Source: a virus (Duplodnaviria > Heunggongvirae > Uroviricota > Caudoviricetes). Taken from it: a stretch of 51,736 nt of DNA. Within the stretch, counting starts at the first letter, position 1. Each line of letters opens with the position of its first letter. Location of the stretch: positions 1 through 51,736 of IMG/VR virus record IMGVR_UViG_2737471852_000002; one strand, 5' to 3'. Positions 1 through 10,099 of the stretch are shown here, one piece after another. The notes beneath the pieces are model-generated. The model did no database searches. It saw only the letters and a list, made by a program, of their open reading frames with translations, and had not been told where the DNA came from. A program made the position numbers and the translations under genes.

Positions 1-789
1 TCAATATCTCTTATTAGGGTTTATTGAGTACTTTTTAAGCTTTGAAGCTACCCGACCAGCGTTACTGTTAGCATTGGTGACGTTGGTTTTTTCAGCTTCT
101 GTTAAGTCTGAATAATCCAGCTTCCAAGCCTTATTACATTTAATCTGAGCATCGAGAATATCATTTCTGATAGCTGGAGCGTAACCGGATACATCGCTAA
201 TATTCATTAATTCTTTGCACGATAGCATAGGCGCGTTATTGCGTTCAGTGGTCACGTTACCTGCATTCTTCTTACTGGTCACACCACCATCATTTGTGGT
301 AGCCGTTTTGCCAGTGGCTGCTGAAATATCAGTTTGCCCTACAATAACCTTAAAGTTGATTTCCTGAAAAGTTAGCTGGATTCTTAAGCCGTTTGAAATA
401 CCAACATCTTTAGAGGCTTTAAAACTAGTAATAATGGAATCGTCAATCTTAATCCCGTCTTTACAAATTACCGAAATAATCTGCTTCTGGTCACGCCAGT
501 TTTCAAGGGTGTCGATGAAGTTTTCTACTAATTGACCCTGACGAGTTAGTAATAAACTTCCTTCATAACCAACTACAACGACACCACTAATAGTGATTGT
601 TCTGGGTGCTCTTTGAACATTATCTGTGACGGTTTGCCCTGATTGCATGTTCTGTGTAGTTACCTGCATAGGACTATCAAATTCCATGTTTTCAGTTGCT
701 GATAAGGTTAAGAAGGCATCTACATTATCTCTTAAGTGGAAATAGATGCCATCTTTGCCACTGTAACGAATCTGATTAGAGTAAATCAT
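1..789 (-). CDS. phage tail-associated protein (possible distal tail protein) of the AT-rich module
   Basis: 262-aa ORF immediately downstream of the tape-measure-like gene on the same strand; AAGGAG 6 nt upstream of ATG at 789; no catalytic motif recognised. Confidence 0.4.
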
Positions 790-864
790 TAAATTCTCCT
801 TTGATTTCAAAGGCTTAGTGTATTTTAATCATTTTTAACCAAGCCTTTGATATATAAGTATTTT

Positions 865-904
865 CTCTGTTAAGCGTGAGCTACGTAAAAAATAATTTTT
901 GGTG
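865..904. repeat. 40-bp perfect direct repeat, copy 1 (second copy at 3138-3177)
   Basis: ctctgttaagcgtgagctacgtaaaaaataatttttggtg is identical at both positions; both copies are followed by ttcacgtag about 20 bp later. Confidence 0.85.
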
Positions 905-945
905 TGGGTATTAACTTTGCTTTATTCACGTAGAACACCGTTAAA

Positions 946-3123
946 TCAATCATCTTCTGGGAATGATGAACTTAATAGCGTAGCTTCTGCATATTGGTCG
1001 TAGATATTACTGCTAAAGGTCATAAAGCTGGTTTCATCTGGTTTAATGGCAACTTCACCACCAAGTGAAACTTTCACAGGCTCCTGAATACGTTTGCTCA
1101 AAGCACTAATTTCATCTCTCAGACTCTGAATATCTGCGCTGGTTAATGCTGAATCTTGCTTAATGTTGTTTAACTCTGGATGATTGAATCTTGCAATATT
1201 CATTGTGGCATTGTTAAACAATTCACCCATTGAACTAAAAATTTTATTCCATCCTTCGTTAATCATATTCGGTTTATTAGGGTCACCAGAATACACAGGA
1301 TTAAAGTCACTACCCACACCTACCCCAGATGGATGCATATTAGCGTTTTTGACTACTTCCTGATTCATAAAATCCAGTGCTTTCTTCAATGCATATAAAC
1401 CAAGAGTGACGCCTCTGATTTGTGGAATCATTGAAGCTAATGCTAACGCTGTTTCATAACCGTCATCAGCATAACCGATTGCAAGAGCACTACCTACACC
1501 ACCAGCTACACCTTTCAGTTTTCCACCACCTTTACCAGTAGCTACCTGACCAGCCACCTGATTAGCTCTTGTACCTAACGTTGTGATTGCTCTTGTCAGG
1601 TTCATAACCCCTGTAGTAGCACTGAATAGTGTCTTTGCAGATAACGCTATAGCAAGACCTTTGACAAAATTGATAAAACCATCACCGACTTCATCAAGTA
1701 GTTTTCGTTTAGTGTCATCAAGGCTGTAATAGAGCTGCTTAACCTGTAAAATCCAGCCTTCAATGTGATTGTTAAAGATACGGATGTCATCTACACCAGC
1801 TTTAAGCATGTCGATAAGTCCACCGATAGCATCACCAGCGATAGAAGAACTCATCCCCATTTCACTAAGCAGGTTACTCAGGCTGGATAAGAAGCCGTTT
1901 AGCTCATCCTGTGAACCTGAGAAGATTTTCACCATCGTGTCATCCCAGTTGTTTGCTAACTTACCTAAAGCTGTCTGGGTGCTCTTAGCGACTTCAGCCC
2001 AGCCACCCGCTTTATCAATCATCAAGCCCATCTGTTTAGCGACTTTAGGAAGAGTATCAGCGGAAAGAATCTTCCCGTCTTTCATCGCTTTATCAAGCTC
2101 TGTAGCAGTCATACCCAATGCTTCAGCGAACAGCTTAAATGCACCAGCCATACGGTCACCTAGCTGACCACGTAATTCCTCAGCCTGAATCTTGCCCTTA
2201 GAAGCCATCTGCTCAAAAGCTTTCAAAATGCCGTTTAGCTCGTCGTTAGAAAGCCCCATTAAGCGACTCATAGCCGTTGCATTACCAAATAGCTCCTGTG
2301 TCTGTTCCTGTGACATAGAACCCTGAGCACCTGCTGCAAACTTAGCGTAGCTTGATAGTCCTTCAGAGATATTAAGACCTGTCTTGTCTGCTAGATTTCG
2401 AATAAATACCTCAGCCTCAGAGGCTTTATCACCAAGTACAAACTTAGCGGCTCTCTGTGCGGAATCTCGTTTAAGACCTGCATTCATAATGGCCTTGTAA
2501 GCGTTAAGAGCACCCATCACAGAGTAAAATGCACCAGATAACTTAATTGCATTGCTTGCAAGATTATTAAATGCGTCGCTTGTATTACTAATGCTGGTGG
2601 ATGTATGACCTCTGGCTTTAGCAATTGCTTCTCGGACTGAAGAATTTAACTGAGCCAACTTCTCATTGAATTTTGAATTATCCATCTGACCAGCTTTAGC
2701 AGATAGCCCGTAAAACTGAGATTTGATGTATTTCTGCAAAATAGGGTCAAAGCCTTTTAGCTTGCTCATATTCGCTGAGTAAGCTGCTGTGATTGCTCTG
2801 TTTCCGCTAATTCGTGGCTGTCTTGGTTGTTTTGGAGGATTAACAGTGTCATTAAATCTGGTGGCAAACTGAAATGCTCTTGTGTTTCTTGCTCTCTGTT
2901 CAATCTTGTCAAAGGTCTTATTAAACTTCCTTTCAAGTTGCCCTAAAGAACTTGTCAGATTACTGTCAAGTTGCTTGGTATCGACCTTAAACGCTCTATT
3001 CAAATTACGTTCAATTCTTTGTGCTGACTGCAAAGCTGCCTTTTCAACTCTTTGCAAGCCCTTAATAACGCTCTCGCTGAAGCCTAGCTCAACGATAAAA
3101 CTATCAACTTTAAATTGTGCCAT
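946..3123 (-). CDS. tail tape measure-like protein (AT-rich module)
   Basis: 725-aa ORF, long helical and coiled-coil-like N-terminal half, glycine-rich hydrophobic segments (GKGGGKLKGVAGGVGSALAIGY), followed by a tail-protein-like gene; GAGGTG RBS before ATG at 3123. Confidence 0.55.
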   Translation of the reverse strand: MAQFKVDSFIVELGFSESVIKGLQRVEKAALQSAQRIERNLNRAFKVDTKQLDSNLTSSLGQLERKFNKTFDKIEQRARNTRAFQFATRFNDTVNPPKQPRQPRISGNRAITAAYSANMSKLKGFDPILQKYIKSQFYGLSAKAGQMDNSKFNEKLAQLNSSVREAIAKARGHTSTSISNTSDAFNNLASNAIKLSGAFYSVMGALNAYKAIMNAGLKRDSAQRAAKFVLGDKASEAEVFIRNLADKTGLNISEGLSSYAKFAAGAQGSMSQEQTQELFGNATAMSRLMGLSNDELNGILKAFEQMASKGKIQAEELRGQLGDRMAGAFKLFAEALGMTATELDKAMKDGKILSADTLPKVAKQMGLMIDKAGGWAEVAKSTQTALGKLANNWDDTMVKIFSGSQDELNGFLSSLSNLLSEMGMSSSIAGDAIGGLIDMLKAGVDDIRIFNNHIEGWILQVKQLYYSLDDTKRKLLDEVGDGFINFVKGLAIALSAKTLFSATTGVMNLTRAITTLGTRANQVAGQVATGKGGGKLKGVAGGVGSALAIGYADDGYETALALASMIPQIRGVTLGLYALKKALDFMNQEVVKNANMHPSGVGVGSDFNPVYSGDPNKPNMINEGWNKIFSSMGELFNNATMNIARFNHPELNNIKQDSALTSADIQSLRDEISALSKRIQEPVKVSLGGEVAIKPDETSFMTFSSNIYDQYAEATLLSSSFPEDD

Positions 3124-3137
3124 TGTTCATATTTCAC

Positions 3138-3177
3138 CTCTGTTAAGCGTGAGCTACGTAAAAAATAATTTTTGGTG
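3138..3177. repeat. 40-bp perfect direct repeat, copy 2
   Basis: identical to 865-904; lies 15 bp upstream of the tape-measure-like gene start. Confidence 0.85.
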
Positions 3178-3330
3178 GGTATATCTGTTCAGAAGATTTC
3201 ACGTAGCACATAGGATTCGATAGAAGACTATCTCATATACAAAAAAGGGAGAAACTACCGAATAATATCGATAATCTCTCCCCGTGTTATAGATTCGATA
3301 GAACCTATCTCATACACCCAACCAATTCTT

Positions 3331-3546
3331 TTAATGCATGACAAGATAATGTAGTTCCGTTTCACCTATGATTTGAGCATCAGAAGGAATACGGTCGATA
3401 CACCATTTTGGAATCTTGCGTGTTTTTGGTTTGCGTGAGGTGATAATTTGATGTTTGGTTTTAATTCTTAAGGCTGGCTTAGTTTGTAACTTTAAGTTTT
3501 CACAAACAGACTTAATAGTTTCATAGCGTTCTGTTAAATCAATCAT
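3331..3546 (-). CDS. hypothetical basic small protein
   Basis: 71-aa ORF, lysine/arginine-rich; no family recognised. Confidence 0.25.
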   Translation of the reverse strand: MIDLTERYETIKSVCENLKLQTKPALRIKTKHQIITSRKPKTRKIPKWCIDRIPSDAQIIGETELHYLVMH

Positions 3547-3569
3547 TAATCACCTCACATATTGCATAA

Positions 3570-4274
3570 TCAAACAGCCTTGCTAAATTCTCGTGGAACA
3601 CTCAGAAAATCATTGAAGCTGATAATCTGTGCCAACTCTTGACGGTACTCCTTAGCCAGCGCTTGATGGTCACTAATCAGCTTAGCCAGTCTTGATTTCA
3701 GTAAATTAATCTCATTTTCTCTTGCTTTCATCAGTTTCTCTTTGGCAATTTCTTCAAGCTCAGCTTGTGATTTATCAGCAACAATTAGAGACAGTCGATG
3801 TGGCGCTCTAATGGCTCTTTCTGTACGAACAACTCTTTGACCTTCTGGTAAATCTGCAATCACTTTACCAATCTCTACAGGGTCATACCCCCAACCGTCA
3901 CGGTCTAGTCGAGAGAAATAAGCATAAGGATTGGTTTGAAGCTCCATCAAAATAGCCATTTCGTCAATTTCGTCTTCAAGCTTGGACTGAATTTTCTCGT
4001 AAACACTTCTCATTGCTTCTTGAGAGTCTTTAATAGCTTGGAAATATCGGCGTTGTAGCTTCAACTTCAAATCAAGTTCACACCGTTCGTTCATAGAAAA
4101 ATCAATTTCAACTCTTGGAATCTCGAGTGGTTCTGGTGGAATATATGGACCTTTATTTACTTCGTGTGATTCCCGCCAAGCTCTATCAAAAGATTCACGC
4201 AAACTTAATTCGTGAATATCAAGTGCACTTGGTCGGCTTTCAATAATCATTTCATTTTCATCACGGATAGCCAT
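3570..4274 (-). CDS. hypothetical protein
   Basis: 234-aa ORF in the AT-rich module; charged and helical; no family recognised. Confidence 0.35.
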   Translation of the reverse strand: MAIRDENEMIIESRPSALDIHELSLRESFDRAWRESHEVNKGPYIPPEPLEIPRVEIDFSMNERCELDLKLKLQRRYFQAIKDSQEAMRSVYEKIQSKLEDEIDEMAILMELQTNPYAYFSRLDRDGWGYDPVEIGKVIADLPEGQRVVRTERAIRAPHRLSLIVADKSQAELEEIAKEKLMKARENEINLLKSRLAKLISDHQALAKEYRQELAQIISFNDFLSVPREFSKAV

Positions 4275-4762
4275 TAATACCTTTCCTCTTCTAAGATAAT
4301 TTATGTTTCAGTTTTTAAAAAGCACACCTGACATCCTCGAACTTAGAAGAGGCTTAAAAGGCGTTTGCCAAGTATGCTTTTTAAAAACTGAATAGCCCTA
4401 GATAATTTCTTATAAAGGGCCATTCATAAGGTGAAGAAATTAAAACATCTAAAGGATTCAAACGAATGAACAAAGACTTTTCGAGATGACCTCTCAGGTT
4501 GTATAAGAGGCCATGTAGCGAAAAGCATTGCACCTTTCAGAATGTTCGGTATAGAACATACCTCACCAACTCAGAATATCCATCCATCGGATTATTGAAA
4601 GAAATAAGAGAGAAATTCTCTCTATAATTAAAATTATGTCATGCTTAAGGTTATTTGTCAACAGCTTTTTAACAGATTGGTAACATTAATTCTTATTTAC
4701 CGTATTACCTACCCAGCAACCAACAAATAGCCCTAGCAACGTCCAAGCAATTATTAAACCCA

Positions 4763-5086
4763 TTAGTGAATCCTCACAGAATCCGTCACCAGAATATTGT
4801 CAGCGTACAGGATTGTCACAGCACCTTTCAAAAATTGCTCTGGGGAAATACTGTATTTATTCGTTTGCTCGATAACCAATCTTTTCATGCTGCTGTCTGC
4901 AATTGGTAGCATCATTCGAGGCTCGTTAAACTCCACCGACTGAATAAAGTCAGAGATGTTTTCTGCATTATCGGCCATCAGCTTTAACAGCCTGTCAAAA
5001 TCAATTGTCACACCTGCATCAGTGAAGCTTTGCACCATCATAGCGGTGTCGCTATCAACGAAAATCTGTAGCGGGAAGTTGTTCAT
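4763..5086 (-). CDS. hypothetical protein
   Basis: 107-aa ORF; no family recognised. Confidence 0.35.
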   Translation of the reverse strand: MNNFPLQIFVDSDTAMMVQSFTDAGVTIDFDRLLKLMADNAENISDFIQSVEFNEPRMMLPIADSSMKRLVIEQTNKYSISPEQFLKGAVTILYADNILVTDSVRIH

Positions 5087-5108
5087 TTCTTAAAATCTCC
5101 TTTTTACC

Positions 5109-5240
5109 AGACCTCCTCAATCGCTCTGTAACGAGCTAAACAGTCTTTTTCAGGGGTAGCCTGTACAGTGGTATTACCCACCCTAAAATAAGATAGTTTT
5201 TTGCGTTAGAATGCGATTGAGAGCGTCTGAGAAGCTGTTT
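5109..5240 (+). repeat. about 120-nt repeated element, copy B1 (paralogue at 6796-6905)
   Basis: shared 5' block agacctcYtcaatcgctctgtaacgagYtaaa and 3' block ttgYgtYagaatgcgRttgagRgcgtct; ctcaatcgc / gcgattgag can pair as a long-range stem. Confidence 0.5.
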
Positions 5241-5242
5241 TT

Positions 5243-5530
5243 CTAATTTCTCTTAAAGTCTCGGACTTGCATAAGATTTTTTGGTCTGGTATCGGCTCTG
5301 TTACCATTTCGATGGATAATTTGCTTATTGGATTGATAGCCATGATAAAGGAACCAGACAACATATTTCACATAGAATGTGTATCGACCTATATTAAATG
5401 TTTTGTTGCCGTAGTCGTCGGTATTTATCGTGACTGACCCCCCATCAGACCAGCACAGGGAATCACTGGATTCATCATAGATAAGGTGTTCTGCAAAATA
5501 TCTTCTAACATCTTCATGCCAAGGTTTCAT
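5243..5530 (-). CDS. HNH endonuclease (small HNH_3-type)
   Basis: 95-aa ORF with GYxxN...IHRNGNRADTRPKNL resembling the H-N-G ... DNR ... NL core of phage HNH nucleases; last gene of a 4-gene overlapping operon. Confidence 0.5.
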   Translation of the reverse strand: MKPWHEDVRRYFAEHLIYDESSDSLCWSDGGSVTINTDDYGNKTFNIGRYTFYVKYVVWFLYHGYQSNKQIIHRNGNRADTRPKNLMQVRDFKRN

Positions 5531-5742
5531 AAAACCTCCTCACCCCAATAACCTAATTCAATCTTATGACGTTCAAACCATTCCGGTTTAACTGCTGTTT
5601 TCAGTGTTTCATTTGGGCCAATGGCTTTAATGAAAATATCTTTTGAGTTATGGATGTCACCGAATCCGTTTCCTTTAATCAGGAGGTCGGAGATGTAGCG
5701 AATCATTTTATCTGTGTGGTATTCAAAGGTAACGCATAGCAT
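5527..5742 (-). CDS. hypothetical protein, translationally coupled to the HNH gene
   Basis: 71-aa ORF; its stop overlaps the HNH start by 4 nt. Confidence 0.35.
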   Translation of the reverse strand: MLCVTFEYHTDKMIRYISDLLIKGNGFGDIHNSKDIFIKAIGPNETLKTAVKPEWFERHKIELGYWGEEVL

Positions 5743-6020
5743 CAGACCTCCAGAGACAGTTTGCGAATCTTGATGCTCAATAGACGGGCAATATCAATTT
5801 TAAAGCTGTTAAGTGCCTTCAAAGTATCTAAAGCGTCCGTAGTAATTCGGATGTGCTTACGACCTTTAGAGACTGGATATTTAAGTAAATCCGACTCAGT
5901 GACTTCTTTAGCGATTGCAAGTTGCATAACAGTTTGATGAGGCAAGTTAGTCGCTCGTTTAATTCTGGTAAGCTCGTTAAAAGCTTCCTCTGAAATACGG
6001 GTTAATGTGTGTTTATTCAT
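5742..6020 (-). CDS. hypothetical protein (possible small DNA-binding protein)
   Basis: 92-aa ORF abutting both neighbours; basic and helical. Confidence 0.35.
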   Translation of the reverse strand: MNKHTLTRISEEAFNELTRIKRATNLPHQTVMQLAIAKEVTESDLLKYPVSKGRKHIRITTDALDTLKALNSFKIDIARLLSIKIRKLSLEV

Positions 6021-6021
6021 T

Positions 6022-6579
6022 TTAAAATTCCTCTGTAACTAAATACGGGTCAAACTCGAAATCTGGTTGCTCGTTTTCCATTGGCTCAATATTCCCAACG
6101 GCAACATGATGTTCAACAATACCAATTAGCTTTGCACACATTACAGCAAGCAATGCACAATATTTATCGCTTGGTAATTCATAACTAAGTCTGGTTGCTT
6201 GTCGCTGAAGATAATTTGTCACGGTAGCTGAGTTAATTTCATCAAGATTCTTTAGAATATAAAATAGCTTTCTGTTGTATTTTGGGTGACCTTCGCTTCT
6301 GCAAAATCCGATAATTACATCTTCAAACTTGCGTGATAATTGCTCGTAAGAATCAACGTTAGCCAAATAATTTTTGATGCTGTTCTGGGTGCTCTTTCTG
6401 GTTGACATATAACGACTCCTCGGTGTAATTGCCCGAATTACTTCGTCAATGCCTTTGCGTTCTGCTCTGGTGAACTTGGGTACTTCGTGGCTGGTGGGGT
6501 TGTTTGTGTAAGCGTAGGAGTTGTGCTTGTTGCGTTCTCTCGATGCCTGAAGCATCGCTCTAAATTCTCTGTCGTTCAT
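6022..6579 (-). CDS. hypothetical protein, first gene of the 4-gene operon
   Basis: 185-aa ORF; the 6022/6020 junction and tight packing indicate co-transcription. Confidence 0.4.
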   Translation of the reverse strand: MNDREFRAMLQASRERNKHNSYAYTNNPTSHEVPKFTRAERKGIDEVIRAITPRSRYMSTRKSTQNSIKNYLANVDSYEQLSRKFEDVIIGFCRSEGHPKYNRKLFYILKNLDEINSATVTNYLQRQATRLSYELPSDKYCALLAVMCAKLIGIVEHHVAVGNIEPMENEQPDFEFDPYLVTEEF

Positions 6580-6663
6580 TCATAAGCTAGTCCTTATAAT
6601 TGTTAATTCTCTGTTAACTTATATAGACAATACTAGCATTTTCAAAGACTAATGTCAAGCATT

Positions 6664-6696
6664 TTTTAACATTTCATTAACATCTGTGGTATAATG
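6664..6696 (+). promoter_or_regulatory. predicted sigma70 promoter with extended -10
   Basis: TTAACA, 18-bp spacer ending in TG, then TATAAT (tgtggtataatggg). Confidence 0.4.
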
Positions 6697-6795
6697 GGTT
6701 TATGGGGAGAGTAAAATATGAGGCGTGGCTATGAGGTTTATTCGATAAACCGAATCAACTATGAGAGTGGTCACATGGTTATTGCATTGCACACA

Positions 6796-6905
6796 GACCT
6801 CTTCAATCGCTCTGTAACGAGTTAAATGGCCTCTTCAGGTCAACTCATAAGGTCAGGTACTTTTTTGTGTCAGAATGCGGTTGAGGGCGTCTCACAAGGA
6901 AATTT
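6796..6905 (+). repeat. about 120-nt repeated element, copy B2
   Basis: paralogue of 5109-5240; the two changes within the candidate stem (gcggttgag vs gcgattgag) convert A-U pairs to G-U wobble pairs when read on the + strand. Confidence 0.5.
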
Positions 6906-6906
6906 A

Positions 6907-7083
6907 ATGGTAAATCTCCCTCCTGAACTGGGGTCACCTGATGTATGGGCTGGTGGAGGTATTGGACTTATTGCAGGTCTGCTACTTCGTTACGTCCTTG
7001 TCAGAGTGCTTGTTGTCTTTAAACTGTTCGGTCGTACATGGACGCTTGACCTTAAGGATAACGACCATACAGAACCCCGCTAA
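6907..7083 (+). CDS. possible small membrane protein
   Basis: 58-aa ORF with AAGGA RBS and a hydrophobic core (GGGIGLIAGLLLRYVLVRVLVVF), downstream of the promoter at 6664-6696 and element B2. Confidence 0.25.
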   Translation: MVNLPPELGSPDVWAGGGIGLIAGLLLRYVLVRVLVVFKLFGRTWTLDLKDNDHTEPR

Positions 7084-7200
7084 ACTCCCTTCAAAACCCC
7101 CTGTACGTGATGGTATAGGGGTATCTTTAGCATTTTGTGCTATCTATTAAAAAATAGCTTGACAGAACAGGAAAGCTGTATCTATCAAGCATTCACCTCT

Positions 7201-7385
7201 CTGACAGTAATTTCTAAAAGTTCTTATTTTTCAATAAGTTGTAATTAGCCATATATAGAGAACTGACAAGTCTCTTCACAGTTAACTCTGTAACCTTAAC
7301 AGTAACTTCTAAAAATACTTATTTTTCAATGAGTTGTAATCACCCAATATATAAGACTGTCCAGTACCTTCACAGATAACTTCAA
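7201..7385. repeat. imperfect tandem duplication of about 90 bp
   Basis: acagtaaYttctaaaaRtNcttatttttcaatRagttgtaat ... cttcacag occurs twice head to tail. Confidence 0.6.
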
Positions 7386-8472
7386 GCCTTCTTAGCTATC
7401 CACTAAGCGGGAGAAGAGCGACACCCAAGAAAGGGAAGCTCCCTTCTTAACCGACCTTCTTAACCAGCCCTTTACGTTATTCGTTCACAGTGTTGATAAG
7501 TGGTTTTGCCCTCTGTTTCTGTTATCATCGGGCTTACCTTATCAGGGCTTTGAAATGTCCCTGTAACTTCCCTCTTAACGGGAGAGAAAGAACATAGTGA
7601 CCCCAAGCGAAGCGCCCCTCTAAAAGATTTTTTAGCTATTTTGTTTAAAAACATATCAAACGATACATTTTATTGATTTAGGTCAAAGACAAAAGCATTG
7701 ACAAAATGGTATGATTGTTCACATAGCCCTCTCTTAACAGACTTTTTAAGAGCTTTTGAGAAGTTTGTTAAACAGACACTCTTTCTGGAGTGTTGTCTTT
7801 TACTTAAGAGGCTTGTTTAGGTAACTCTCAAGACATTTCTTAAGACTTCACTGTTAAGATAGAACCTACCTTCGGTTTCATGGTTCTCTTCCTCCCGTTA
7901 AACAGTTCTTCCTAGCAACTTCATAGTTCTCTGTCAAGTATCTTTGAAGATTCTATCAAAACCCTCTAAATCTGACCTGATATAGATGCTGTGAAGGCAT
8001 GTTCTCTAGGTCTGTGTAGCTCACTAAGCGAGAGAGGGGATATGGTGACCATAGGGGAACCCCTCCTACTTAAAAGAACTATTTGATATTATTGTGATGG
8101 TTGTTTAAGATGCAACTGTGCAGACACCTTAACGGTTTCTCTACACCCCTTATAGTCTGGCGAGGTAGGGTACGGCTAGGTAGGGTGTGGTTGGGTCTGG
8201 TATGGGTGGATTGTCGTAGCCACGTTAAAAATCGACTTGTAAAGGGACTCTTTCGGGAGTCCTTTTTAGTTTGTATAAAATCTGTACAGTAACTTTTCAG
8301 ATTCTGAAAATTTTTATAAAAAATAATCAGGCCTCTTCTAAGTCTCTTCAACCAAATCTTTCAAAAATATCACAAGACTATGTATACCTGCTAAGTACCC
8401 GTCACTACGCCTAAGTGGTCCCCTTTGCAAAAAAGCCAAATATCAGTCACATCCATGTAACTATTCAGTAAC

Positions 8473-9021
8473 TTATTTAGCAAGTCTGTAATAAGTTGCT
8501 CTAGAGATTCCTAACTCTTCCTGAATCTGCAACCTCGTTTTACCTTGTGAAATAAGCATCTTTACAGTCTCTGAAGAAGCTTTTACGGGTCTCCCCATGT
8601 GAACCCCTTCAGCTTTAGCACGTTCAATACCAGCCTTTCTACGTTCACTGATAAGGTCTTTTTCAAGGTCAGCTAAACCAGCCATCATAGTAAGCATTGC
8701 TCTACCGATTGGTGTTAATAAGTCGAAACCTTCACGCAAAGAAACAACTCTCACACCTTTAGACTGTAGTGACTCCACGTTAGAGAGCACATCAACGGTA
8801 TTACGCCCTAAACGGTCAATAGCTACCACAACTAACGTATCGTCACACCTTACATAGTTCATCATGTCTCTAAAACCATCTCTGCTGGTGGCCTTTGTAG
8901 TTCCTGAGACAGCCTCATCAATAAACCATTTATCGACCTTGTGAACCTTCTCTATCTGTAGTTTCTGGTTGTCTACAGTCTGGTCTTGTGTTGATACCCT
9001 GCAATAACCAATCACCGCCAT
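8473..9021 (-). CDS. small serine recombinase (resolvase/invertase family)
   Basis: 182 aa; N-terminal VIGYCRVSTQDQ with catalytic Ser context, C-terminal HTH (RLQIQEELGISRATYYRLAK). Confidence 0.85.
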   Translation of the reverse strand: MAVIGYCRVSTQDQTVDNQKLQIEKVHKVDKWFIDEAVSGTTKATSRDGFRDMMNYVRCDDTLVVVAIDRLGRNTVDVLSNVESLQSKGVRVVSLREGFDLLTPIGRAMLTMMAGLADLEKDLISERRKAGIERAKAEGVHMGRPVKASSETVKMLISQGKTRLQIQEELGISRATYYRLAK

Positions 9022-9032
9022 ACATCCCCCTT

Positions 9033-9160
9033 AGAAGTCTCAAAAGTTAGTCTCATAAGTTTAGCTGTCTCATAATCCAAAAACAACCTTTTGAGACTAC
9101 TTGAGGGTGCATTCTACCGTTACGTTGAAAGTGTCTCAAAAGGAAGTCCTTTTAAGACTG
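9033..9160. promoter_or_regulatory. cluster of direct and inverted GTCTCA(A/T)AAG motifs; candidate res/crossover site
   Basis: motif at about 9037, 9051, 9068, 9131 and inverted at about 9088 and 9149; 9133-9158 forms a 26-bp palindrome gtctcaaaag-gaagtc-cttttaagac; directly upstream of the recombinase gene. Confidence 0.4.
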
Positions 9161-9802
9161 GTTATGAAGGAGCTATGAGGTTGATTCCTAGAACTAACCG
9201 AATCAACTATAACCATCACCTCCTAATATTCACGTAGGAAATCGTTAAGGGTTTTATAGTTACACCATGTGACCAACTGCATGAATAGCGTTATATACTC
9301 CTGTATATAGCACTTTTCTAGGAGTCGAGAGAGGAACGACTAACACGATACAGTTTACCCTGAAAAGAGACTTCACAGATTCTCTATATATTTCAATAAG
9401 TTATGCTAAAAAGAGACTATACCGATACTGTATAGAATCTGTGTAAAACTGCTTAGATACTTGGGAAAATGCCTTTAAATTGCATAATCATAGGGGTTGG
9501 AACAAGCCCAACTACACCTGATAAAGCCTGTTATTAACAGGTCTCTTAGAAAACCGAATAGACTTCATTCAAGGGTCATTGAAGTCATAATCATTTCAGT
9601 AGAAAAACCAGGTCTCGATTTTAAATGCAAATAGCAATCATATTCAATAAGGCAAGACGATCAGGATCAGTGAAAATGTCATTTTTGGCGTAATTACCCT
9701 TACTTTATGCATGGCCTCAACAAAGACATCATCTTTCCGTTGCAGATCTTCGCCCTTTCAAATAACGTACTTTACAACTTTCCCGAACAAGGAGTTGTGC
9801 CC

Positions 9803-10099
9803 GTGTTGTATGTTATTTACGCTCAAGACAAAGCTGATAGCCTCGAAAAACGCCTTTCCGTTCGTCCGGCACATTTAGCACGTTTACAGTTACTGCATGA
9901 TGAAGGTCGTTTGTTGACAGCTGGTCCAATGCCAGCGGTAGACAGTAACGATCCAGGGGCTGCGGGATTTACTGGCTCAACCGTTATTGCTGAATTTGAA
10001 TCGCTGGAAGCAGCTCAGGCCTGGGCCGATGCTGACCCGTACGTAGCGGCAGGAGTCTATGAACACGTTTCAGTGAAACCATTTAAGAAAGTGTTCTAA
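9803..10099 (+). CDS. YciI-like (Dabb-fold) small protein
   Basis: about 99 aa from a GTG 8 nt after AAGGAG; [21 protein letters not shown] and C-terminal [17 protein letters not shown] resemble the YciI family; GC content host-like. Confidence 0.5.

Follow-up and report, generated by a model that had tools for sequence, protein, structure and literature searches.

A conserved, largely non-coding region with two elements related to Felix-O1-like phages is a candidate regulatory and cis-acting hub of a putative satellite island in Escherichia

Results

A gene-poor region of conserved blocks

The subject of this study is a gene-poor stretch of about 1.9 kb (positions 6580-8472, hereafter the region) in a window of 51,736 nt, the whole of the DNA analysed (viral record IMGVR_UViG_2737471852_000002, positions 1 to 51,736). 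It lies between two minus-strand genes, one for a 185-aa protein (6022-6579) and one for a small serine recombinase (8473-9021). We describe its anatomy, the integrative island in which it lies and its relation to the virulent Felix-O1-like phages (Ounavirinae). An earlier note, made from the letters of the window, had regarded the region as a stretch of phage genome with almost no coding capacity. The window was aligned with 11 homologous loci (10 from E. coli and one from Escherichia albertii, 12 sequences in all; loci are cited by L numbers). The low coding capacity was borne out for 6580-6906 and 7084-8472, but not for the open reading frame (ORF) at 6907-7083, which is an intact gene for a 58-aa protein. 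No other ORF of at least 30 aa is conserved. All others are broken in most of the 11 related loci or lack codon periodicity, and 6580-6906 and 7084-8472 are therefore non-coding; the ORFs dismissed as coding candidates on these grounds include 7472-7654 (minus strand), 8079-8351 (minus strand) and 8101-8292 (plus strand).

The non-coding DNA is organised in blocks that are conserved at least as well as the neighbouring coding sequences, for which column conservation across the 12 loci is 80-89%. These blocks are:

6637-6714, 91-94% conserved
7101-7220, 94-98% conserved
7605-7722, 94-99% conserved, the most conserved block of the region
7910-7989, 94-95% conserved
8189-8228, 96% conserved
8253-8371, 93-96% conserved
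8388-8507, 95-100% conserved

Comparison with homologous regions, which the earlier note had proposed as a check, thus showed that the blocks and the tandem repeats described below are kept in related loci. Between the blocks lie variable, indel-rich stretches, including two of the three sites (7398-7450 and 8016-8072) at which GC-rich hairpins had been noted. Two alternative haplotypes, ~50% divergent from each other between nearly identical flanks, occupy 7470-7545 and 7757-7895; haplotype A is found in the window, L001, L008, L010, L009, L012 and L007, and haplotype B in L002, L011, L014 and L003. This alternation of conserved blocks and variable stretches speaks against decayed genes or junk. 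The suggestion of a regulatory region or an array of binding sites fits these data, as the ultra-conserved blocks hold promoters, repeats and terminators. A megablast search with the region against phage and plasmid collections returned no match, and neither DnaA boxes nor IHF sites were notable within it.

The region belongs to an AT-rich integrative island

Matches to Citrobacter phage Omnitron and lambdoid phages cover the window from ~10.3 kb on, whereas 1-9.6 kb has none, and the GC content is 39.5% in this first part compared to 52% in the adjacent prophage. The region belongs to a separate AT-rich island of ~11 kb and not to the window's prophage. The gene-poor gap described by the earlier note is real, but its assumed position inside a phage genome was mistaken. 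The share of the island that falls in the window is:

1-9658, 39.5% GC (from annotated contexts, Pfam, PHROG and GATC counts)

The order of features along the island is a Dit-like baseplate gene cut by the start of the window, a tape measure gene, small genes without assigned function, an HNH nuclease gene, the 185-aa gene, the non-coding region, the small recombinase gene and ~0.5 kb of non-coding DNA. At other loci a gene for a large serine recombinase stands at one end of the unit. In E. coli genomes the ~11 kb unit lies between dinB and lafU, between wrbA and ymdF, between tonB and yciI, and also at the mdtG and yecN sites; it thus has its own integrase and occupies at least five chromosomal sites, as an integrative element would. 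In the window the island adjoins yciI (9707-10099). Homology to copies elsewhere stops at 9486-9542, and the GATC-free zone described below ends at 9658, the first GATC being at 9659. At least 80% of a 2.2 kb query was present in 93 of 5426 complete E. coli genomes and some part of it in 492 of the 5426; in a scan of species-representative genomes E. albertii was the sole match.

The gene content of the island offers few assignments. Searches of Pfam, PHROG and NCBIfam gave nothing useful for the proteins of 58, 71, 71, 92, 107, 185 and 234 aa, and PADLOC matched none of 10 island proteins. For the 185-aa protein there are ~1090 clusters, all called 'hypothetical', with names from E. coli, Salmonella and Shigella; it forms an orphan family with 19 representatives among 1.8 billion proteins, and its AlphaFold model (pLDDT 45) was unusable. 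Profile and family searches recognised no Rep protein, primase or terminase among the island proteins. Capsid, portal, terminase, sheath and tube genes were likewise not found, and the only virion homologues are the tape measure and the Dit-like baseplate protein, a partial virion gene set of the kind looked for in satellites.

On one metagenome contig, OOBX01000469.1 (L064; L071 is on the same contig), the right end of the island is joined to the large-serine-recombinase end through the core AAAGCAC. This attP-type junction lies at ~2084-2093 of the reverse complement of L064, where GCTATGTAAAAGCAC is followed directly by TAGTATTCTTGCC, and the 23 kb contig holds two copies of the block 7605-7722 that are 22.3 kb apart. 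These features suggest a tandem array of non-identical islands or an assembled circular or concatemeric form. L019 was also considered as a concatemer and was rejected, as it has no self-repeat and a chromosomal context.

The chromosomal flank of the island in the window (9543-10097, the yciI region) is only ~91% identical to E. coli genomes, and the best match of the 185-aa protein (94%) is named from Salmonella enterica. Based on these two comparisons, the host of the window may not be E. coli proper.

The island shares genes and a GATC-free composition with Felix-O1-like phages

The baseplate protein of the island is 73% identical in amino acid sequence to the Felixounavirus protein encoded beside the tape measure gene. 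At the nucleotide level, the baseplate gene is 88% identical over 547 nt to that of phage tootiki, compared to only 39% identity for the adjacent tape measure protein, which suggests recent recombination between island and phage. The 88% nucleotide identity concerns the N-terminal part of the island gene (window 256-801, compared to L015 24545-25091). The GC contents of island and phage are nearly equal (39.5% and 39.0%).

A second shared property is the absence of GATC. This tetramer was counted in the window, L001, L002, L003, L019, L039 and L053, and in the phage loci L015/L016, L005, L022, L025 and L029. There is none in window 1-9658, with 33.7 expected for 1-9540, and none in five other island copies, each with about 40 expected (~34-42 per copy over all island copies); the only GATC sites in those sequences belong to an inserted IS3 or to host flanks. 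In the neighbouring prophage and the chromosomal flanks GATC is as frequent as expected. Phage tootiki has none against 311 expected, and no GATC was seen in any Ounavirinae fragment examined. That genomes of the genus are free of GATC has been published (PMC5477317, PMC4690856). An island that is GATC-free while moving between sites and species fits exposure to the selective regime of the phage itself. CCGG, CGCG, GCGC and GGCC are likewise depleted in the island and the phages.

A GGTNN array with a covarying stem-loop is shared with the phages

Towards its right end, the region carries two segments that are homologous to non-coding elements of Ounavirinae. The first, referred to here as the GGT element, is:

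8159-8237, plus strand, an array of 11 units with a 5-nt period (GGCGA GGTAG GGTAC ... GGGTG GATTG) followed by a stem-loop (blastn, nhmmer, array census)

By blastn it matches 70 Ounavirinae records at 75-88% identity, with a score of 68.3 bits compared to 22.4 +/- 1.8 in shuffled sequences. The matching phage DNA has no annotation and separates the ligase gene from the gene that follows. Phage genomes have 2-5 copies of the element, each of 9-17 units, in the replication-gene region, always on the sense strand of the flanking genes; nhmmer detected three copies in tootiki.

The stem (8213-8216 with 8233-8236) encloses a conserved 16-nt loop, TAGCCACGTTAAAAAT. Its pairing is kept by compensatory changes, with GGTAG/CTACC, GGCAG/CTGCC, AATCG/CGATT and AGTCTCA/TGAGACT among the variants and GTCG/CGAC in the island. 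In a count that comprises only about five independent element types, 97.1% of cells were paired compared to 70.8 +/- 3.9 in shuffles (reached in 0 of 500), and all five pairs were changed on both sides; controls in which the stem positions were slid gave 19-44%.

Arrays of (GGTNN)9-17 occur as pairs upstream of two replication-region genes in Ounavirinae (L015 9987-10203 and 11398-11462; also L005, L022, L024, L025 and L029). Each precedes a covarying stem with a conserved 16-nt loop and is either unannotated or labelled 'repeat_region' in the records. We found no description of these arrays in the Felix O1 genome paper, and, within an incomplete coverage of the literature, none of the arrays or of the island family elsewhere.

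In the TRAP-binding leader of the Bacillus trp operon, 11 (G/U)AG triplets with 2-3 nt spacing stand upstream of a terminator. The GGT element resembles this arrangement in its GGT/GGU triplets (9-17 in the phages, 11 in the window, and thus at least nine), its strict 5-nt period and the stem-loops and terminator that follow. Unlike in the TRAP leader, the triplet is a different one and the number of units varies; the comparison is one of architecture, a resemblance and not membership, and no TRAP-like protein came to light, although no search aimed at one was made. Read as single-stranded RNA, the array recalls a TRAP-type site by analogy. No antiterminator pairing with the hairpin at 8241-8266 was found by eye. 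As a DNA element, the array may be a G-rich R-loop, an origin or a priming site.

A segment across a phage terminal-repeat boundary

The second phage-like segment follows the first:

8270-8472 (match to ~8515), plus strand, homologous to Ounavirinae sequence across one boundary of the direct terminal repeat (DTR) of the phage (blastn, nhmmer)

Its counterpart in tootiki (53925-54167) lies inside the 1.6 kb non-coding convergent region of the phage. The segment is 63% identical over 252 nt, with an E-value of 2e-12 against the whole phage genome by blastn and 1e-7 by nhmmer. Against phage HP1 the E-value was 1e-9. The segment scored 61.1 bits, compared to 27.1 +/- 2.1 in shuffles. Many phage records start or end inside the convergent region, at two positions ~570 nt apart, and Citrobacter phage HP1 has a 570-bp terminal repeat annotated there. 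The HP1 boundary maps between window positions 8393 and 8394, inside the conserved motif TGTATAyCTGCTwrGTA. Blocks common to five phages and six islands are CTGTAyAG, AAAATTTTTAT, AAAATATC, a diverged form of the boundary motif, CTTkGCAAAA and AAATATC; the AAAATTTTTAT block is extended by AAA in all but one island variant. The heptamer TCTTAAC is enriched 59-fold in the phage DTR and 13-fold in the non-coding part of the island. For the Felixounavirus UAB_Phi87, exact terminal repeats of 608 bp were mapped experimentally, and only the large terminase is known (PMC4837284); the start of its record is not the mapped terminus and so gives no anchor for the cut site.

Modules of the region differ in their distribution

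The distribution of modules was compared across ~50 loci of the island family. The left core is nearly universal and consists of the small ORF, the P2 block (7101-7200), one or two 95-bp repeats, cassette 1 and the P3 block (7605-7722), all described below. The right-hand part varies, and the phage-derived elements in it are accessory or helper-specific rather than universal. In L019 an HNH-AP2 homing-endonuclease gene (9370-9894) replaces cassette 3, the GGT array, the DTR-like segment and the small recombinase, and the position appears to be a variable hotspot.

Promoters, a long leader and a small membrane-protein gene in the left core

The left core begins with divergent promoters and a small gene:

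6630-6695, both strands, divergent sigma-70-type promoters (promoter scan, 11/12 matches on plus and 10/12 on minus, both with TG)
6735-6765, plus strand, polymorphic mini-element of ~31 nt in the leader, with the stem GTTkATTC / GAATCAAC (alignment, motif search, repeat family D11)
6797-6900, plus strand, long leader of the small ORF, with arms CCTCTTCAATCGC / GCGGTTGAGGG around a variable core (BLAST self-matches, pairing read from the sequence)
6907-7083, plus strand, small gene, with AAGGAA before its start, for a protein of 58 aa (62 aa in two variants) that has a single hydrophobic helix
7098-7121, plus strand, intrinsic-terminator-like hairpin that closes the small-ORF transcript (terminator scan; -15.9 kcal/mol, z -2.8)
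7101-7200 block, plus strand, candidate promoter P2, with TTGACA 7159-7164, an 18-nt spacer and TATCAA, a weak -10, reading toward the repeats (read from the sequence)

The near-consensus extended -10 promoter of the earlier note was recovered by the promoter scan, with TTAACA at 6666-6671, 18 nt and TGgTATAAT ending at 6695. Its minus-strand partner (TTGACA 6658-6653, 17 nt, TAGTAT ending at 6630) is directed at the operon of the 185-aa gene. TTGACA boxes predicted near 7160 and 7695 are present at 7159-7164 and 7698-7703. The description of the region as dense in promoters did not hold up against dinucleotide shuffles, with 10 promoter-like sites compared to 8.5 +/- 2.3; terminator-like sites were hardly enriched either (4 compared to 2.4 +/- 1.5). 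The P2 block shows 94-98% column conservation and is found in nearly all of the ~50 loci.

The ORF is unbroken in all 12 loci, with 14/5/30 variable sites at the three codon positions, and is an annotated coding sequence in three RefSeq genomes (L003, L009 and L010). The 58-aa protein had no match in Pfam, PHROG or NCBIfam. With respect to type I toxin-antitoxin systems, the protein is small and hydrophobic and its leader would be ~205 nt long if transcription starts after 6695. The leader fold (6700-6910) has a z-score of -1.4, and its energy alone is not significant compared to shuffles. No antisense promoter/terminator pair is evident at the ORF. The stem at 7098-7121 is kept in 11 of the 12 variants and is weakened in L003 (-12.0 kcal/mol, with an internal mismatch).

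A paralogous leader-like copy is found at 5108-5230, where it lies antisense to the intergenic region between the HNH and 107-aa genes, the other copy (6797-6900) being 5' of the 58-aa ORF. Both have complementary arms (CCTCyTCAATCGC ... GCGrTTGAGrG) and a variable core. At 6735-6765 itself, nine of the 11 related loci have no mini-element; L008 has all of it and L002 a partly deleted form. L010, L012 and L013 carry one at the position that corresponds to ~8237, and another copy is found at window 9173-9210. Its full form is CTATGAG-GTTkATTC-loop-GAATCAAC-TAT, with short direct repeats CTATGAG / CTATAAG at its flanks, and its presence and absence from site to site resembles a tiny mobile or recombination-prone hairpin.

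Tandem repeats, exchangeable cassettes and hairpins

Between the small gene and the phage-like elements lie repeats and hairpins:

7204-7381, plus strand, two tandem 95-bp repeats, each with CAGTAAyTT and the palindrome ACTTATTTTTCAATAAGT (TRF, repeat families D2 and D4)
7401-7470, plus strand, cassette 1, CACTAAGCGGGAGA-core-CTCCCTTCTTAA, then the 13-nt repeat CCTTCTTAACCGA (fold z -1.5)
7572-7625, plus strand, cassette 2, a degenerate relative, CTCTTAACGGGAGA ... CCCCTCT, with no stable fold (z +0.7)
7605-7722, plus strand, promoter P3 block, with an AT-rich upstream part, then AAGACA 7686-7691, 18 nt and TGgTATGAT ending at 7715 (extended -10)
7734-7796, plus strand, double hairpin whose second part has a T-tail and resembles a terminator (-25.6 kcal/mol; z -3.2 on the plus strand, -1.85 on the minus strand)
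8022-8071, plus strand, cassette 3, CACTAAGCGAGAGA-core-CCCCTCCTACTT, whose core type differs among loci (fold z +0.2)
8241-8266, plus strand, hairpin resembling an intrinsic terminator, with TTCG-type loop and T-run, immediately 3' of the GGT element (z -3.35)

The tandem duplication of ~90 bp that the earlier note had seen was confirmed by TRF (7204-7381, period 95, 1.9 copies, 83% matches). One or two copies of the 95-bp repeat are present in every locus that spans this position, TTTCAATAAGTT occurs a third time at 9391, close to the end of the island, and the repeats are candidate protein-binding or iteron-like sites.

What had been taken as a family of GC-rich hairpins is indeed a repeated cassette with conserved flanks, CACTAAGCGGGAGA ... 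CCCTCC[C]TTCTTAA/CTACTT, and interchangeable cores. A given core type may occupy site 1 in some loci and site 3 in others, so that cores have been exchanged between these sites. The predicted stability of the three cited hairpins is no better than that of shuffles (z = -1.5, +0.7 and +0.2). The 13-nt unit CCTTCTTAACCGA (window 7444-7470) includes the TCTTAAC motif and is present in 2-5 copies among the loci. A motif search did not find the cassette motifs in the phage, where the sole lookalikes are ribosome-binding sites of early genes. A further hairpin reported at about 3247-3285 does exist (GGGAGA...TCTCCC), but its proposed kinship to the cassettes fails because the flanks are missing. It lies at ~3247-3281, upstream of the tape measure gene, between direct repeats GATTCGATAGAAsmCTATCTCATAyAC at 3215-3242 and 3292-3319.

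Only three hairpins, at 7098-7121, 7734-7796 and 8241-8266, rise above shuffle level; all are terminator-like and on the plus strand. The stem at 8241-8266 is kept in variants despite loop insertions. P3 together with the double hairpin would yield an RNA of ~75 nt, although only in haplotype A, as haplotype B does not fold alike. An exact 30-mer from the P3 block matched 3 loci of the viral collection and 37 metagenome loci. Covariance-model searches with Rfam 15 gave no match in the whole window at gathering thresholds, and in 6500-9700 chance-level matches only at E-values up to 10. ARAGORN found no tRNA or tmRNA in the window.

The small serine recombinase has a candidate site on its other side

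The gene that bounds the region on the right, and the repeats 5' of it, are:

8473-9021, minus strand, small serine recombinase of the resolvase/invertase type, 182 aa (Pfam Resolvase 1.7e-41 and HTH_7; PHROG DNA invertase)
9033-9156, five GTCTCAwAAG-type repeats, direct and inverted, 5' of the recombinase gene (families I2, I13 and D14; TRF)

This gene belongs to the variable right-hand module and is present in about half of the related loci. The earlier note had stressed that the region lies next to a resolvase gene. The adjacency holds, but a functional link is weak, since no inversion was seen and the candidate res repeats are on the other side of the gene. BLAST comparison showed each of the 11 related loci to be collinear with the window. 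A res site is typically a repeat cluster upstream of its gene, and 6580-8472 lies 3' of the recombinase stop codon. Judged from their sequence and position, the repeats at 9033-9156 are likely a res or operator site, and the probable target of the recombinase is therefore outside the region.

Discussion

A regulatory and cis-acting hub of a putative satellite

Taken together, we favour, at slightly better than even confidence, the view that the region is the regulatory and cis-acting hub of an ~11 kb integrative island, and that this island is a putative satellite or parasite of virulent Felix-O1-like phages. The left core (6580-7722), with its divergent host-type promoters, membrane-protein gene with leader and terminator, 95-bp repeats, purine/pyrimidine-rich cassettes and strong extended -10 promoter, would govern expression of the island itself and perhaps also its replication, with the 95-bp repeats and cassettes as binding sites of island regulators. 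The right variable module (~8020-9160) comprises two diverged copies of helper-phage elements, followed by the small recombinase and its own presumed repeat site. Since no replication or terminase gene is recognisable in the island, helper proteins would be expected to act on the copied elements: at the GGT element for replication or transcriptional activation, and at the copy of the DTR boundary through recognition by the helper terminase. The small recombinase might then resolve multimers at its GTCTCAwAAG repeats.

Several observations weigh against this interpretation. Excision, replication and packaging upon phage infection are steps that we infer. Both the GGT element and the DTR-boundary segment are only putative signals in the phage itself, and the second DTR boundary has no counterpart in the island; a search of 7084-8160 for that boundary and for the 22-nt repeats of the phage gave nothing significant. 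Among the several island proteins of unassigned function, one could serve in replication or packaging. About two thirds of the loci have the GGT element and about one third lack it, the full DTR-like segment is found only alongside one type of small recombinase, and some variants are without the whole right-hand module. This patchy presence indicates that the two elements are not essential for every member of the family. Three island contigs from the viral-contig collection look chromosomal. Finally, the island copies are 85-95% identical overall, and their conservation therefore partly reflects recent common ancestry.

Alternative explanations

The earlier note had raised a cluster of small RNA genes, with several short plus-strand transcripts in which the function of the region would lie. 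Every strong hairpin and T-tail is on the plus strand, the stems contain G-U pairs, P3 with 7734-7796 would produce the ~75-nt RNA with its strand bias in folding (z -3.2 on plus compared to -1.85 on minus), and the GGT array with its terminator is reminiscent of a leader to which a protein binds at 5-nt intervals. However, Rfam gave no match even at E-values up to 10, the three cited hairpins fold at shuffle level, the best candidate RNA is missing from haplotype B, and promoter-like sites are not enriched. Moreover, the top-conserved blocks are promoter-like or AT-rich DNA, and the hairpins lie in variable, indel-rich parts. As a main explanation, small RNA genes thus find no support here, and we consider them unlikely. 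A recombination substrate of the small serine recombinase, be it a res site, an invertible segment or a partition-like site, would account for the adjoining gene and for inverted repeats such as 7295-7313 / 7840-7858. This explanation is very improbable given that 11 of 11 loci are collinear, that the region is 3' of the stop codon with the typical res/operator cluster upstream of the gene at 9033-9156, and that the core of the region persists in loci without the recombinase.

The homology to phage elements would apply equally to an anti-phage decoy or sensor, in which the phage-like elements would act on helper proteins by titration or sensing and set off a defence, for example through the membrane protein or the HNH nuclease, and in which the island is never packaged. 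HNH nucleases, a small hydrophobic protein with a long leader reminiscent of membrane toxins, and a right-hand module that varies like defence hotspots are consistent with such a role. Yet PADLOC matched none of the island proteins, and the island is found at no fewer than five chromosomal sites and in several species and is GATC-free like packaged phage DNA. We regard this role as quite unlikely in its exclusive form; it does not exclude a satellite function, and PLE provides a precedent for both. The region might instead be non-functional remains, that is, genes in decay or fragments carried along from an ancestral genome of the Felix-O1 type. The island clearly derives in part from such phages, 1.6 kb around the DTR is non-coding in the phage as well, and the close kinship of the island copies inflates apparent conservation. 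Nevertheless, remains would hardly be expected to show non-coding blocks at 94-99% conservation next to coding sequences at 80-89%, and no leftover reading frames or codon periodicity were seen. Phage identity is concentrated in short invariant motifs common to all phages and islands, the GGT-element stem is maintained by compensatory changes, and the core is kept in ~50 loci despite their indels and module swaps elsewhere. We hold mere remains to be highly improbable.

Relation to known satellites

Characterised satellites of virulent phages are, to our knowledge, few and include PLE, PICMI and the Streptomyces satellites; we found no description of a satellite of the Felix-O1 group in the literature. 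PLE of Vibrio cholerae carries, in non-coding DNA beside its ori, an 89-bp mimic of the ICP1 pac site that includes a 14-bp match and is required for transduction (10.1101/2024.04.22.590561). Like PLE, the island described here is small, encodes a large serine recombinase and nucleases, is associated with a virulent myovirus (ICP1 for PLE) and has a non-coding mimic of helper signals. PLE differs in having its own RepA, packaging specifiers and a capsid-remodelling protein, none of which is recognisable here, and no sequence relationship between the two was seen, although no test aimed at one was made. Unlike PLE, the present island has helper-derived tail genes (tape measure and Dit-like), its helper has exact terminal repeats where ICP1 is of the pac type, and it is known from sequence alone. 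PICMI is a satellite of virulent phages with a large non-coding region and without capsid-remodelling or terminase genes, packaged as an 8-copy concatemer that fills a helper-sized capsid (10.1101/2023.07.18.549517). Eight units of ~11.2 kb would come to ~89.6 kb, close to the helper genome of 88-89 kb, which is arithmetic and not evidence. In contrast to the several sites of the present island, PICMI integrates at fis; it also encodes a primase, has no identified packaging site and has unrelated hosts and helpers. In P4 (with the cos of P2), SaPIbov5 and EfCIV583, a copy of the helper packaging signal leads the helper terminase to package the satellite (10.1101/2024.04.22.590561). These systems rely on cos or pac sites and temperate helpers, in contrast to one boundary of an exact terminal repeat and a virulent phage here.

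Going beyond the hub itself, we tentatively suggest, at well below even confidence, that the islands constitute an undescribed and widespread satellite family of Felix-O1-like phages in Escherichia that has no replication or packaging genes of its own. Such a family would rely on a GGTNN mimic of an origin or activation site, perhaps single-stranded and bound by a multimeric protein at 5-nt spacing, together with a copy of the cut site. It would be packaged as concatemers of ~8 units that the small recombinase resolves.

Implications

Phages of the Felix-O1 group are widely used in typing and biocontrol of Salmonella and E. coli. If the satellite interpretation is true, roughly 2-9% of complete E. 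coli genomes would carry such a satellite at least in part, and the efficacy and host range of Felix-O1-like therapeutic phages could be affected. It would also give a handle on the sequences that define the genome ends of Ounavirinae, for which no small terminase is known, and on the role of the conserved GGTNN arrays in their replication region. Even if the satellite interpretation fails, a GATC-free chromosomal island that shares this property with one phage genus is a sharp signature of shared selection.

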